64,000 nt of DNA from Abditibacterium sp. (GTDB taxonomy: Bacteria > Armatimonadota > Abditibacteriia > Abditibacteriales > Abditibacteriaceae), in NCBI GenBank assembly GCA_965246885.1, contig OZ251992.1, positions 2,976,001 to 3,040,000 on the forward strand, read 5' to 3'. Each line of letters starts with the position of its first letter. Positions within the stretch are counted from its first letter, which is position 1. The translations under genes were made by a program, and so were the position numbers. The notes beneath the pieces were generated by a model. It was given only the letters and a program-made list of their open reading frames with translations. It did not search any database and was not told where the DNA came from. This document shows, piece by piece, positions 34,078-38,962 of the stretch.

Positions 34078-34155
34078 TGGCTTTGAGTGTGGCAAGGTCA
34101 GCGCCCCGCCAGAACCGCGCCAATGGTGGGGAGAGCCATTGGATACGCTTTATGG

Positions 34156-34977
34156 ATGCAAACCCTGCTTGTCGTTGGCGGCTCGTTCGACTTCTCCGGC
34201 GATTTCCCTGAACTGCGCGTTGTTCATCGCTCGCTAAGCGGCGCGAAGTGGTTGCTGGGCGGGGAGAACGCGCTTTACTTTCTTGACCGGAGCGGAGCGA
34301 TTCGCGCGGATGCCATCTTGTGGCGCGTCGGGGCGATTCGGGCGCGCGAAGAACATCGGCACGCGCTCGAACTGATTCGCTTGGCGGGCATACCGTGCGT
34401 CAACGCCGCCCAAACACTGCTGCGCGGCTTCGAGCGGTTGTCCATGCTGGCCGAACTGCGCGAAGCGGGCGTGCCGATGTTGCCGTTTTCGGTCACGCTG
34501 GGCGAAGGCGCGCTCGAAGAAGTGGAGCCGGAGTTGCCGTGCGTTCTCAAGGTCGGCAACTGGCATGGCGGCGTTGGCAAGGCGAAGCTGGAGGCGCGCG
34601 AGAACTATTTGGACGCGCGCGATTTGGCGAGCGCGGCGGGAGATTACACGACCATAGAGCCGTTCATCGAATATCGGCGCGACGTGCGAGTTTTGACCGT
34701 CGGCGAGCGGCTGTGGGCGATGGAGCGCGCTTCAAGTGCGTGGAAAGTCAATCGCGGCGACGCGCAGGTGCGCCTTATCGAACCGCCCGACGAACTCGCG
34801 CGCTGGACGAAGCGCGTGCGCGAGCATCTGGGCGCCGACATGCTGGGCTTGGACTGGATCGAAGCGCCGGACGGCGCGTGGTGGTGCCTCGAATCGAACG
34901 ACGTGCCGGGGCTTGCGGGCTGGCCCGACGAGGTGCGCCGCGCATTGGTAGCGAACGTGCGGAACAAAATCGCCTGA
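34156..34977 (+). CDS. RimK-like ATP-grasp protein
   Basis: PCVLKVGNWHGGVGK, EPFIE..DVRV, WK.N, GLDW and LESN motifs. Confidence 0.85.
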   Translation: MQTLLVVGGSFDFSGDFPELRVVHRSLSGAKWLLGGENALYFLDRSGAIRADAILWRVGAIRAREEHRHALELIRLAGIPCVNAAQTLLRGFERLSMLAELREAGVPMLPFSVTLGEGALEEVEPELPCVLKVGNWHGGVGKAKLEARENYLDARDLASAAGDYTTIEPFIEYRRDVRVLTVGERLWAMERASSAWKVNRGDAQVRLIEPPDELARWTKRVREHLGADMLGLDWIEAPDGAWWCLESNDVPGLAGWPDEVRRALVANVRNKIA

Positions 34978-34987
34978 GCGCCCCGTC

Positions 34988-35017
34988 TTGACAACGCGCT
35001 TCCCGGCGCCTTACAAT
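34988..35017 (+). promoter_or_regulatory. Sigma70-type promoter
   Basis: TTGACA-N18-TACAAT immediately upstream of the riboswitch. Confidence 0.7.
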
Positions 35018-35029
35018 CTCTGGGTTAAT

Positions 35030-35128
35030 TTCATAGCGCGCCCTTTTGGTTGGGGAAGTCCGGTGCAAGTCCGGCGCTGTCCCGCAACGGTAATGACTTT
35101 GGTCTAAGCCCGATTACCAACCCCAAGG
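35030..35128 (+). ncRNA. Cobalamin riboswitch (compact)
   Basis: GGGAA, CCGGTGCAAGTCCGG T-loop hairpin, GCTGTCCCGCAACGGTAA and AAGCCCG occur in canonical order; boundaries approximate. Confidence 0.88.
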
Positions 35129-35279
35129 CCGTCACAAAATCCCTGCGCGAGAACAGGGAAGACGAACCCGGCCCGCACCGCTCGTGCGCGGCTTGTCGCC
35201 CTTGGTGGCGCCCGTTTCCCCATTCTCAGCTTGGCTTTTGTGACACGCCCGCAGCCGCGTGCGACGGCTGCCGAGCCAC

Positions 35280-36122
35280 ATGTCACCCACATCCAACCAC
35301 CGCCCGCAACCGGGCCGGAGCGCTTTCACGCTCATAGAAATCCTCGTCGTCGTGGCGATTATCGCCCTGCTCGCCGCCATCCTGTTCCCGGCCTTTGCCC
35401 GCGCGAGGGAAAACGCGCGCCGCGCCAGTTGCCAATCGAACCTCAAGCAAATCGGCCTCGCGTGGATCCAATACTCGCAGGACTACGACGAGAAAATCAT
35501 GCGCTTCTCGACGGGCGCCGATTCCGCTTCCGTCGCTACGCCCGCCAATCCCATCAACTACTGGTGGGGCGGCTACGACGGCACCACCTTCCGCGCCGCC
35601 AACGGCCTCTTGCAACCTTATCTCAAGAGCGACCAAGTGCGCGCTTGCCCCTCGTTCACCGCCGCGCCCGCCAACGCCTACGAAGGCTCGACGGGCTACG
35701 CTTACAACGTCGACACCCTCGCGCCCACCGATTATCCGGCGCCCTCTTTCTCGCCGGTTCCGCGCACCGCCAGCCTTGCCTCGATTCAGGACACCGCCCA
35801 AACCGTCGCGTTCGCGGATTCGGCCCACTTGCGGAACTACGATCCCACCACCTTTGCGTCAATTTCGCCCGCCGTCTTCGAGGCCAATACCTTTCTAAGC
35901 GCGCCTAAAGCGAACTACCCCACTTTCGCGGCCCGTCACCTCGAAACCGGCAATGTCCTGTGGTGCGATGGGCACGTCAAAGCGATGCACCCGTTCTATC
36001 GCACTGGGAGCGTGGGTTTTGGCGCCTATTCTGCTGACGAGCTTCGCTCTTACAACCTCGGCGACATAGACCGCGACGGCGACCTTTCGACCGACGAACT
36101 CTTCAACGGCACCGGCAAGTAA
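35280..36122 (+). CDS. Prepilin-type N-terminal cleavage/methylation, DUF1559 and H-X9-DG protein
   Basis: [43 protein letters not shown] and [16 protein letters not shown]. Confidence 0.95.
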
Positions 36123-36203
36123 ACAGCGCGACACTTGGGGGCGCCCGAAGACGCACTCAGGTGGCGAAACCGAACGAGGGGGCGCGTGATACTTCCGGGC
36201 ATC

Positions 36204-37415
36204 ATGCGCCCATTGCTCCTTCTCGTCCTGCTCGTCGCGTTGCCTCTGGGCGCGCGGGCGTGTCTCAACGACCGCGACTCCGACGCGCTCGCGGTTCAGA
36301 ACGGCCGCGTTCCCGATGCGTTGCGCGTCGTTAGTGGGCGCTTCGAGCGCAACCCGCCGCGCTTTTATCAAATGCGAATCGCGCGGGTGAGCGGCGAACT
36401 CAAAGTCCATCCGCGCGACTTCGGCTTATACGACGACCTCGCCGTCGCGCACGACAAGTTGGGCGACGACGAGGCGGCCCTGCGCGTCATGGCCGCCAAG
36501 CGCGCCCAGTTGCCCGCCTACAACGCGCACGACAAGGCCAACAAAGAAGCGTGGTATCGCTTCTTCGCCAACGACGGCACCTTCCGCGCCCACCTCTTCT
36601 TGCACGCGGGCGCCCCAGTCGCGGGGTTGGGCGAGATGAAACAAGCGCGGGCGGAGATCGCGCGCGCCCTGCGCATCAAGCCCAACGCCCACTTCGGGCG
36701 CGAGAAGTATCAGGTGGCGGTGATGGATTGGGTGGTGCTCGCCAAAACGGGCAAGACCGAGTTGTCGCTGGGCGACTGGATGCAAGCGCGCTTCAAATGG
36801 GACGGCGGCTACGACTGGCCAAGGCAACCGCTCGCACCGCAAAATCAAGAGGCCGCGCAAGGGTTGGCGGGCCTCATCGTGTTGGGCGCGGCGTGGCGCA
36901 GCCCCGACGTGTTCGACGCCCTCGCAACGGCCTTGGAAGCGCGCCCGACCATCGCGCTGTCGTATCTGGCGCGGCACCGGAGTCAGGAACTGCTCGCAGG
37001 CGGCGCCAAATCTCTTCAGCCCAAAGCCGTTCTGCCGTTGGACGAGTACTGGCTCCGCGACCGGATGGATCGCGGCCTGAACGACACCAACGCCAAGACC
37101 CTCGACGCCTTTTACCCGAAGCTGCGCGCCGATGCCGAAGCGTGGCAAACCCGCCGCGCGGCATGGATGAACGCCCGCTTTGTGCGCGGCGAGCATCCCG
37201 ATACCGATGCCGACTTCTGGCGGGGTTGGCAAGATAGCGCGCCCATGTCGCTCGATGTCGCGTGGTATGACACCCGCGCCGAAACTCAGCGCATAATGCG
37301 CAACGCGAAGTTCATCGCATTGTCAACGGTGTTGGGGGTTCCCACACTGCTTTTGGTCGCCTGCTTCTGGTTCGCGCGCCGTCGCCGCGCCAAGCGCCAG
37401 AACGCTCCCACTTAA
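36204..37415 (+). CDS. Secreted TPR-like protein with C-terminal membrane anchor
   Basis: Signal peptide; C-terminal TM followed by RRRRAKR. Confidence 0.75.
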   Translation: MRPLLLLVLLVALPLGARACLNDRDSDALAVQNGRVPDALRVVSGRFERNPPRFYQMRIARVSGELKVHPRDFGLYDDLAVAHDKLGDDEAALRVMAAKRAQLPAYNAHDKANKEAWYRFFANDGTFRAHLFLHAGAPVAGLGEMKQARAEIARALRIKPNAHFGREKYQVAVMDWVVLAKTGKTELSLGDWMQARFKWDGGYDWPRQPLAPQNQEAAQGLAGLIVLGAAWRSPDVFDALATALEARPTIALSYLARHRSQELLAGGAKSLQPKAVLPLDEYWLRDRMDRGLNDTNAKTLDAFYPKLRADAEAWQTRRAAWMNARFVRGEHPDTDADFWRGWQDSAPMSLDVAWYDTRAETQRIMRNAKFIALSTVLGVPTLLLVACFWFARRRRAKRQNAPT

Positions 37416-37466: not shown

Positions 37467-38405
37467 ATGAAACACCTGCTGCCCTTGTTGCTCCTGTTGC
37501 TCGTGTCGGGGTGCGCGTCGAATCCCGGTGCCGGGTATGCCGGTAAGCAGTTAGCGACCGAGCGCAAGGCGTTCAAAACATCGCTTGTAGCGTCGGGGAT
37601 CGCGCGCGAAGCGGCACCGACCGCGCCGACGGATTTCATGCAAACGGTCAAGTTCCCCGCGCCATCGGGTCAACTGAGCGCCTATCTGAGCTATCCGCCC
37701 AAAGACGGGAGTAAAGTCCCCGGCGTGGTGTGGATAACGGGCGGCGATTGTAACTCCATCGGCTCGGTTTGGGAGCGCGAATCGCCTTCCAACGACCAAA
37801 CGGCCACGCAATACGGGCAGTTCGCCATGATGTACCCGTCGTTGCGCGGCGGCAACGACAACCCCGGCCAGAAAGAGGGCTTTTTGGGCGAAGTGGACGA
37901 CGTGCTCGCCGCCGCTGACTTCCTCGCCAAACAACCGGGCGTTGACCCCACCCGCATTTACTTGGGCGGCCACTCGACGGGCGGCACTCTTGCGTTGCTC
38001 ACGGCGGAAAGCACAAAGCGTTTCCGTGCCGTCTTCGCGTTTGGGCCGGTCGGCGACGTTTCGACCTACGGCGACGACCGCCAGTTTCTGCCCTTCGACA
38101 CGAGCAAGCCCGAGGAGATCGCCATTCGCTCGCCCATCAACTGGCTCCACTGCGTCCAGTCGCCGACATGGGTCATCGAAGGTGACGGGCGCGGCAACAG
38201 CGACCAACTGCGCCTCATGAAAGCCGCGACAAGCAACCCACAACTGCACTTCGTCGAAGTTGCGGGCGCGAGTCATTTCAGCGTCTTGGGCGCGTCCAAC
38301 GGCGTCATCGCTGGGAAAATCGCCGCCGATACGGGGCCAAATTGCAACATCGCCCTCGACGGCGACGAACTCGCCCGCGCAGTGAAAGCGGCGGGGGCAA
38401 CGTAA
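37467..38405 (+). CDS. Alpha/beta hydrolase (S9-like) lipoprotein
   Basis: Lipobox VSG-C; GHSTGG nucleophile; ASHFS. Confidence 0.85.
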   Translation: MKHLLPLLLLLLVSGCASNPGAGYAGKQLATERKAFKTSLVASGIAREAAPTAPTDFMQTVKFPAPSGQLSAYLSYPPKDGSKVPGVVWITGGDCNSIGSVWERESPSNDQTATQYGQFAMMYPSLRGGNDNPGQKEGFLGEVDDVLAAADFLAKQPGVDPTRIYLGGHSTGGTLALLTAESTKRFRAVFAFGPVGDVSTYGDDRQFLPFDTSKPEEIAIRSPINWLHCVQSPTWVIEGDGRGNSDQLRLMKAATSNPQLHFVEVAGASHFSVLGASNGVIAGKIAADTGPNCNIALDGDELARAVKAAGAT

Positions 38406-38416
38406 CCGGCGCCTGC

Positions 38417-38962
38417 ATGACCAGACCCACGCGCGAACAACTCCTCGCCGCCGCAGGGCGCACCATGCCCGACATTCTCGCGCCGGGGTTGCGCGTCGCG
38501 TTTTGCGGGATCAATCCGAGCGTTTATTCGGTGGTCGTCGGGCATCATTTCGCGCGGCCCGGCAATCGCTTTTGGCCCGCCTTGTTTGCGGCGGGCTTTA
38601 CTCCGGCGCGCTGGGCGCCTGCCCAAGACCGCGAGTTATTGGGGATGGGGTTGGGCATTACCAACGTAGTGGCGCGCTCCAGCGTGGCGGCGGCGGAAGT
38701 AACGCGCGCAGAGTTCGAGGCGGGCGGGCAACTGCTACGCGCCAAGATGGAGGAGTTCCGACCGGAAGTGCTGGCGGTGTTGGGCATTGGCGCCTACCGC
38801 GCGGCGTTCAATCGGCCCAAAGCGACGCTTGGCTTGCAAGCCGAAACCATCGGCACAACGCGCTTGTGGGTGTTGCCGAATCCAAGCGGCCTTAACGCAC
38901 ACTACCACCCGCCCGACTTAGCGCGCCTGTTCCGCGAATTGCGCGAGTGGGCGGATGAATGA
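38417..38962 (+). CDS. mug: G/U mismatch-specific DNA glycosylase
   Basis: CGINPS, HFARPGNRFW and LPNPSGLN motifs. Confidence 0.95.
   Translation: MTRPTREQLLAAAGRTMPDILAPGLRVAFCGINPSVYSVVVGHHFARPGNRFWPALFAAGFTPARWAPAQDRELLGMGLGITNVVARSSVAAAEVTRAEFEAGGQLLRAKMEEFRPEVLAVLGIGAYRAAFNRPKATLGLQAETIGTTRLWVLPNPSGLNAHYHPPDLARLFRELREWADE

Follow-up and report, generated by a model that had tools for sequence, protein, structure and literature searches.

A stretch of 64,000 nucleotides (nt) from Abditibacterium sp. (contig OZ251992.1, positions 2,976,001 to 3,040,000), referred to here as the window, was analysed for a cobalamin riboswitch that lies ahead of a gene for a pilin-like protein of the DUF1559 family. 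The pilin-like gene is termed P0001, the next open reading frame (ORF) P0002, and the genome from which the window derives G000; other G numbers denote relatives and L numbers denote loci. The riboswitch–pilin unit contains the following features.

34988..35017, + strand: sigma-70-type promoter TTGACA-18-TACAAT, 11/12 consensus matches
35030..35139, + strand: cobalamin riboswitch aptamer, short form, 110 nt (Rfam RF00174)
35131..35139, + strand: 5' arm of a long-range helix, GUCACAAAA, predicted to pair with 35236-35244
35140..35159, + strand: hairpin UCCCUG-CGCGAGAA-CAGGGA directly 3' of the aptamer, read from the sequence and recurring in relatives
35236..35244, + strand: 3' arm of the long-range helix, UUUUGUGAC, predicted to pair with 35131-35139
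35251..35271, + strand: hairpin GCAGCCG-CGUGCGA-CGGCUGC, 8 nt upstream of the start codon
35280..36122, + strand: P0001, prepilin-type DUF1559/H-X9-DG gene, 280 amino acids, ATG start (N_methyl, DUF1559 and TIGR04294)
35316..35387, + strand: class III (prepilin) signal and hydrophobic N-terminal helix (N_methyl, residues 13-36)
35937..35972, + strand: H-X9-DG motif, H220 to G231 (TIGR04294)

The original prediction for this DNA had described a sigma-70 promoter, a cobalamin riboswitch, a leader of about 150 nt containing a TCCCTG..CAGGGA hairpin and a prepilin-type DUF1559/H-X9-DG gene, with no B12 transport or isozyme genes adjacent. The riboswitch, the promoter and the gene were confirmed as real, each element at the coordinates listed above. 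The hairpin was likewise present, the leader between the aptamer and the start codon measured 140 nt (35140-35279), the N_methyl, PF07596 and TIGR04294 matches of the gene product were all above their cut-offs, and no B12-related family was identified among the called neighbours between 27.5 and 47 kb of the window.

The promoter was the only site of its kind between positions 34800 and 38600, compared with a mean of 0.3 in shuffled sequence, and it begins 11 nt past the stop codon of the upstream gene (34087-34977, + strand), which encodes an ATP-grasp protein of the Synapsin_C / RimK-like type. The Rfam search that the prediction had proposed gave a score of 36.9 bits for the aptamer against a gathering score of 31.5 bits for RF00174, with E = 9.6e-6 in the window and 1.3e-7 in the genome search, the match spanning model positions 1-189. 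RF00174 was the sole Rfam family above threshold in the 64-kb window, and the aptamer was the only RF00174 match in G000 (3,555,033 bases in 2 contigs). In this aptamer a single base takes the place of about 23 model positions in the P2 arm, and 6 bases that of 64 positions in the P6 extension; P2 and the P6 extension are likewise absent or reduced in the other short forms of the genus. Alignment with 12 short forms of relatives showed that the core letters (B12 box and P3-P6 junction) are kept, and within the 13 sequences two pairs of P4 switch from CG to UA, in 5/13 and 4/13 cases. Similar short forms precede nrdAB and metE, which are classical B12-riboswitch targets, within the same genus.

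The hairpin directly behind the aptamer is conserved in this riboswitch class, recurs at the corresponding place in relatives, whether the leader belongs to a pilin gene, nrdAB or metE, and may be a regulatory hairpin of the P13 type. Covariation between L5 and the loop of this hairpin, as in a kissing loop, was judged by eye and none was seen. The predicted long-range duplex of 9 bp (-17.9 kcal/mol vs -13.2 +/- 2.4 for shuffles) would join the last nine bases of the Rfam match to an arm located 36 nt upstream of the start codon, and the pairing is preserved with other letters in G005, G006, and G004, where the duplex is 2 to 3 standard deviations more stable than shuffles. The second hairpin, at 35251-35271, is conserved in the genus and is found just ahead of the ribosome-binding site in G005, G006, G004, G014, and G002. 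No intrinsic terminator was found in the leader of the window (+ strand) or in that of G002, and a clear intrinsic terminator was present between the aptamer and the gene in 13 of the 22 riboswitch–pilin leaders of relatives. By analogy with riboswitches of this class, B12 binding is likely to lower P0001 expression, giving an OFF switch, and because the leader of the window shows no terminator, the switch probably works on translation or through Rho. It could be argued that the aptamer has decayed to a relic, or is matched by chance, and has ceased to control P0001, since it scores 36.9 bits only, its P2 and P6 are truncated and it has no terminator. This is extremely unlikely, however, as nrdAB and metE of the genus are under short forms whose core is the same, P4 carries compensatory changes, and the leader hairpins and the long-range pairing are conserved; furthermore, the aptamer is the sole cobalamin riboswitch of a B12-dependent genome and has a strong promoter ahead of it.

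The protein encoded by P0001 was then considered. It matched Pfam N_methyl at 27.4 bits (cut-off 21.2), TIGR02532 at 25.2 bits (cut-off 16.3), DUF1559 (PF07596, Pfam id SBP_bac_10) at 53.1 bits (cut-off 23.3) with aligned residues 41-70 only, and the H-X9-DG model TIGR04294 at 22.1 bits (cut-off 19) over residues 216-236. The prepilin motif reads A15|F16-T-L-I-E20, with Ala at -1, Phe at +1 and Glu at +5. Within the riboswitch-linked subfamily defined below, there is almost no variation at F16, T17, L18, and E20 and none at H220, D230, and H232; position -1 is occupied by Ala or Gly throughout. A model obtained with AlphaFold2 from 20 subfamily members (mean predicted local distance difference test score 86.9, predicted template modelling score 0.81) showed a helix at residues 18-68 followed by strands. 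The best fold matches among 48,161 chains searched with VIA-align were pilins, namely PilV (Z 5.5), ComP (5.4), and PilA4 (5.1), where a Z below 8 may reflect a common arrangement only and here says little beyond 'pilin-like'. With Foldseek, the model had no counterpart in the PDB at E <= 0.001, a sequence profile from the PDB aligned to the N-terminal helix only, and the N terminus matched GspG-type pseudopilin models weakly. P0001 had no Pfam match to Plug, TonB_dep_Rec or PF01497 (Peripla_BP_2). Since it lacks the Plug and barrel domains, it is not a BtuB; the claim examined below is that it works in BtuB's place. The nearest named relative shares 65% identity and comes from a metagenome-assembled genome of the Abditibacteriales, and a contig search with P0001 yielded 2 true relatives.

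The linkage between riboswitch and pilin was studied in a first sample of 41 genomes (G000 and 40 relatives, 22 genera), which gave 59 RF00174 hits, all of them examined. The gene behind the hit was pilin-like in 23 cases and a Plug-domain receptor in 22, and the other targets were nrdAB (3), nrdD (1), metE (2), a BtuF/ATP-binding cassette (ABC) operon (3), DUF6580 with BtuF (1), and BtuR (1), with 3 unclear or cut by a contig end. Both Pfam domains were present in 20 of the pilin-like targets, N_methyl only in 2, and 1 was recognized by its motif; in one case the pilin was the second gene. A profile prepared from 20 riboswitch-linked pilins was used for the reverse test, and 22 of the 24 matches of at least 238 bits were found to sit behind a riboswitch hit, 4 of these 22 being second genes of a tandem pair and 3 having riboswitch hits below the Rfam cut-off. 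Among matches of 195-237 bits, 6/14 were linked. P0001 was the top match in G000 at 363 bits, with the next paralogue at 186, and those members of the genus that do not have the arrangement contained background paralogues only (~ 172-182 bits). A maximum-likelihood tree placed 20 linked pilins on one side of a branch and 51 G000 paralogues, the only outgroup used, on the other (Shimodaira–Hasegawa-like approximate likelihood ratio test 94), and FastTree recovered the same split with 79 linked pilins (support 88).

A second sample consisted of 101 genomes of the phylum from 73 genera, each at least 90% complete. A riboswitch hit was present in 98/101 genomes (136 hits by our own count), and 105 new hits were scanned. 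In 69/101 genomes a pilin motif began within 520 nt past the aptamer, as the first gene, and the 59 new pilin ORFs matched N_methyl in 59/59 and DUF1559 in 56/59 cases. In G000 about 52 ORFs carry both the prepilin motif and H-X9-DG, which is ~ 1.6% of roughly 3300 genes, the latter being a rough estimate for 3.55 Mb. Because this type of pilin makes up so small a part of the genes and yet the pairing is kept across the phylum, the riboswitch–pilin linkage is beyond chance. The survey of this linkage that the original prediction had called for thus favours it, as far as the Armatimonadota are concerned. Two loci carry several aptamers: in G089 (L172, G089:C83:28755-29225, - strand) a single DUF1559 pilin is preceded by a tandem pair of cobalamin riboswitch hits with 82 nt between them, and in G109 (L196, G109:C50) four riboswitch hits lie inside 8 kb.

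By a reading of coordinates, 20 of the 101 genomes have a Plug-domain ORF a short way downstream of a riboswitch hit. The pilin arrangement was present in 3 of these 20 and in 66 of the 81 genomes that have no such receptor (Fisher 4.6e-8), although this value, like a further one of 7e-7, overstates the effect, since kinship among the genomes makes them non-independent. The three genomes with both arrangements were all from the window's own family. By family label, 21 families had the pilin only, 5 the receptor only, 3 both kinds and 5 neither; families f1, f18, and f31 each hold genomes of either kind and so give within-family contrasts. Two full-length riboswitch-controlled receptors had their best match to TonB-B12 (TIGR01779), at 330 and 298 bits, below the equivalog cut-off of 599.7. 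In the first sample, a subfamily pilin was found behind a riboswitch hit in 16/16 genomes that have no Plug protein, compared with 6/25 of those with Plug, two of the 16 linkages having riboswitch hits below the Rfam cut-off and one of these two coming from a targeted scan only. A general anticorrelation between the pilin and any TonB-dependent receptor, which held in these 41 genomes, was however weak in the 101 (pilin arrangement in 26/44 genomes with any Plug protein vs 43/57 without, p 0.09) and was set aside. The complementarity is limited to the riboswitch-controlled receptor only: riboswitch-BtuB and riboswitch-pilin rarely coexist (3/101).

The need for B12 and the means of importing it were examined in G000, an Abditibacteriales-like genome of 3.55 Mb. 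It encodes MetH with all five domains and a class II B12-dependent ribonucleotide reductase, which was the sole reductase matched by the NrdA and NrdD proteins of relatives in blastp. The genome is 92.7% complete and absences from it therefore mean only 'not found'; on those terms, CbiC and CobS were not found, and neither were a Plug domain, a TonB-dependent barrel or a TonB_C domain. Parts for import were present as two Peripla_BP_2 proteins and one FecCD permease, and there were six secretin ORFs, two prepilin peptidases (Peptidase_A24) and three PilT-family ATPases, the last scoring above the curated cut-off. G000 thus seems to rely on B12 from outside and to possess parts for its import at the inner membrane, without the usual outer-membrane receptor and energizer, and its single B12 sensor is placed on the pilin-like gene. 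Other arrangements of Peripla_BP_2 genes were observed: a signal-less Peripla_BP_2 in G000 itself lies behind a 183-amino-acid ORF that has no family (G000:C1:2696466-2697877, L083), a riboswitch in G037 (L041) stands over a DUF6580 membrane protein and a Peripla_BP_2 that has no signal peptide, and in G006 (L033) a DUF6580/Peripla_BP_2 pair was found behind the pilin by sequence reading only. DUF6580 together with a signal-less Peripla_BP_2 may form an inner-membrane corrinoid route.

Taken together, the linkage across the phylum, the complementarity with riboswitch-BtuB, the BtuF and salvage neighbours described below and a B12 need that is accompanied by neither BtuB nor TonB strongly support a putative role for P0001 in corrinoid acquisition, in line with what had been proposed for it from the window sequence. 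P0001 probably joins B12 uptake because, in this phylum, the same riboswitch class controls either the pilin or the B12 receptor. More specifically, it is fairly probable that the B12-repressed pilin-like protein does the outer-envelope step of corrinoid uptake in BtuB's place. In such a system, scarcity of B12 would relieve the riboswitch and the prepilin would be made; one of the two prepilin peptidases would cut it, and its N-terminal helix would insert into the inner membrane. The prepilin would then become part of a short pilus or pseudopilus, with one of the six secretins as its passage. The corrinoid would be bound by the globular domain of the prepilin, and retraction, for which the three PilT-type ATPases would be available, would carry the ligand into the periplasm, from where its import would fall to a BtuF-type binding protein together with a FecCD-type permease. 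Within this reading, the pilus picture itself, with a secretin, a head that binds the ligand and PilT retraction as ComP is used for DNA, stands by analogy at perhaps even chances.

The genes that accompany the linked pilins bear on this reading and on its competitors. The next ORF lay within 400 nt of the pilin in 39/59 new loci, and a Peripla_BP_2 (BtuF-type) gene was directly behind the pilin in 13/59, and also in L065 and L069. Further ORFs of L069 resemble CobU, CobT, and CobS by eye only, and in L066 the pilin is followed by CobQ (Pfam) and then by a BtuF-type lipoprotein-like ORF recognized by eye. The frequency with which Peripla_BP_2 genes adjoin the pilin could also be accommodated if there were no fibre and P0001 were an inner-membrane-anchored periplasmic corrinoid binder, or a protein handing corrinoid over to BtuF/ABC, with the outer membrane crossed otherwise; the pilin gene is also usually alone, without pilus-assembly neighbours. 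Such a tethered protein is nevertheless unlikely, for the Glu at +5 is nearly invariant, a second periplasmic binder would duplicate BtuF, and the replacement of the outer-membrane receptor in the riboswitch regulon would be left unexplained. In type IV pilins and pseudopilins the Glu at +5 serves filament assembly.

Type IV pili commonly serve adhesion and twitching, and it could be that B12 scarcity turns on the pilin for adhesion, motility or contact with B12-producing neighbours, the more so as G000 contains both PilT ATPases and secretins. This is very improbable indeed, however, given that the pilin is found in apparent operons with BtuF, CobQ, and CobU/CobT/CobS-like ORFs, that the arrangement is complementary to the BtuB-like receptor arrangement, and that a dedicated orthologous subfamily suits a ligand-specific role better.

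In a number of relatives the gene behind the linked pilin encodes a 440-531 amino acid protein that has no Pfam family. It was observed in G057, G058 (twice), G070, G082, G093, and G110 (L131, L132, L133, L146, L163, L179, and L197), and is a candidate for a further part of the system in those families. Such a protein could also be read as cargo. P0001 would then serve as a pseudopilin in machinery resembling type II secretion, whose task under B12 scarcity would be to export a corrinoid scavenger or to remodel the surface. The weak GspG-type match of the N terminus agrees with this idea, as does the use of surface B12 binders by Bacteroides in the passages available from one study (PMC6143338). 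No such partner is found phylum-wide, however, and none is present in the window, and the paralogues linked to thiamine pyrophosphate (TPP) riboswitches, described next, would require a matching thiamine-binding cargo. To our knowledge, there is also no precedent for a substrate-specific pseudopilin dedicated to a single cargo, and we regard export of this kind as very improbable.

The only TPP riboswitch of G000 (C1:852282-852399, - strand, 69 bits) lies directly ahead of another DUF1559/N_methyl gene, at locus L052 (G000:C1:851451-852399, - strand). In the 41 genomes, a TPP riboswitch was ahead of a DUF1559 gene in 7 of 22 TPP loci. Two unrelated vitamin sensors, each with its own DUF1559 paralogue, are hard to explain except by vitamin acquisition. 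The original prediction had pointed to a nutrient-import role for the whole DUF1559 family, and the TPP-linked paralogues are the one further case on which such a role can be based. Tentatively, then, DUF1559 proteins could be substrate-specific subunits of a retractile pseudopilus importer that replaces TonB-dependent receptors in the Armatimonadota, and probably in the Planctomycetes–Verrucomicrobia–Chlamydiae group too, with one substrate per paralogue. It is just as tentative that the B12 and thiamine members would then be two that riboswitches happen to label.

Several points weigh against the proposal that the pilin stands in for BtuB in corrinoid uptake. To the overstated Fisher values, the weak relation to any Plug protein and the incompleteness of G000, all given above, must be added that the pilin is not simply a BtuB alternative, because three genomes carry both. 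At the locus itself, the aptamer scores just 5 bits above the RF00174 cut-off, the leader shows neither a terminator nor clear sequestration of the ribosome-binding site, and the pilin of the window stands alone, with no adjacent BtuF or salvage gene. P0002, tried as a conserved partner, had no homologue in the 52 loci compared, did not occur beside the pilin in relatives and was rejected as such. Two matches to the subfamily profile, in G038:C139 and G025:C537, have no detectable riboswitch, and, because the outgroup of the trees consisted of G000 paralogues only, non-linked paralogues of other genomes might fall inside the linked set. Finally, the fold matches listed by Foldseek and VIA-align hold no known B12 binder and all have Z < 8; note, however, that a missing fold match to BtuG, BtuF or transcobalamin-like folds is not evidence against binding.

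Immediately downstream of P0001 lies the following feature.

36135..37415, + strand: P0002, 426 amino acids, signal peptide and C-terminal membrane helix, no Pfam or NCBIfam family

No terminator-like site was found on the + strand of the gap between the two genes, and P0002 may be co-transcribed with P0001. In the ESM Atlas, P0002 falls near TPR-like clusters of Planctomycetota and Armatimonadota, which is a lead only. The second and third genes past the pilin encode an S9-type alpha/beta-hydrolase lipoprotein (37467-38405, + strand) and a Mug/UDG glycosylase (38342-38962, + strand). An S9 hydrolase was also found directly behind a riboswitch-linked pilin in G036 and G075 (L040 and L153), and a UDG-family gene in G072 (L150); the recurrence of these genes near the pilin may be due to chance or to ancient synteny.

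Longer proteins from the databases that include a P0001-like part were also inspected. Among the 41 examined, some add GntR/LacI-type, glycoside hydrolase or Peripla_BP_2 domains (P0008, P0011, P0014, P0022, and others). P0022, with Peripla_BP_2 and a P0001-like part, was rejected as a fusion, its prepilin motif being internal (318-342), as was P0008, with GntR/LacI-type domains and an internal motif at 409-434; both were taken for adjacent genes that had been called as a single one. In P0014 the prepilin motif is N-terminal (17-38) and NAGLU domains come after it.

None of the three components, namely riboswitch class, pilin signal and DUF1559 family, is new in itself. No paper on the pairing of a cobalamin riboswitch with a DUF1559/prepilin gene, or on vitamin uptake by a pilin-like protein, was found in the literature covered, subscription journals lying outside that coverage. 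DUF1559/H-X9-DG is among the largest families for which we know of no function, and the linked subfamily offers a concrete test of that function because the riboswitch names its ligand. Were the uptake role to hold, bacteria without TonB-dependent receptors would own a second outer-membrane route for large nutrients, powered by pilus ATPases, with consequences for the exchange of vitamins in communities of soil and rock and for the cell biology of the Armatimonadota. The wider importer idea, if true, would explain why these phyla have dozens to hundreds of DUF1559 genes and few or no TonB-dependent receptors.

The closest functional comparison is with uptake of the E. coli type, in which a btuB-type leader is found with BtuB/TonB and BtuFCD. 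As with E. coli btuB, a cobalamin riboswitch stands ahead of the gene that would carry out the first envelope step; in the phylum this gene encodes a BtuB-like receptor or the pilin, seldom the two together, and the BtuF-type and FecCD-type parts of the E. coli system are present in G000. P0001 differs from BtuB in being a protein of 280 amino acids with a prepilin signal and neither Plug nor barrel, and no TonB was found in G000, so that the energy, in contrast to BtuB/TonB, would presumably come from pilus ATPases.

Where a pilin is used to take up a ligand, the parallel is Neisseria, whose competence type IV pili take up DNA by means of the DNA-binding minor pilin ComP. P0001 may resemble ComP (PDB 5hz7, 2nba) as a subunit of the predicted pilin fold whose globular domain would be ligand-specific, with ComP among its top three fold matches (Z 5.4), and a secretin and PilT-type ATPases would be available to it. 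The sequence likeness between the two is restricted to the N-terminal helix, however, and the low Z may reflect the common pilin fold; moreover, the proposed ligand is a 1.3-kDa vitamin rather than DNA, and P0001 is under riboswitch control.

Among accessory proteins of B12 uptake, BtuG works together with BtuB. In passages of the paper that describes it, BtuG is a surface lipoprotein of Bacteroides without which B12 is not transported efficiently (PMC6143338), and P0001 is like it, as far as those passages go, in being an accessory envelope protein of unknown family that was found via linkage to B12 transport genes or riboswitch loci; BtuG acts early in B12 capture. Unlike BtuG, P0001 is of the prepilin type and occurs mostly where there is no riboswitch-controlled BtuB, and no likeness of fold to BtuG appeared among the matches listed. 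Pili-like fibres of Planctomycetes, a phylum with many such pilins, bind dextran, and the authors of that work speculate that crateriform structures and fibres are tied to uptake (PMC5394234). The dextran case differs from that of P0001 in concerning another phylum and a macromolecular substrate, with the proteins of the fibre not identified in the passages available from that paper, which makes no mention of TonB.

In its general build, P0001 is like the GspG/PulG pseudopilins and other DUF1559/H-X9-DG proteins, with which it shares a class III signal, an N-terminal helix and a small globular head. Within DUF1559 it is set apart by its membership of a distinct subfamily, one defined by linkage to the riboswitch.

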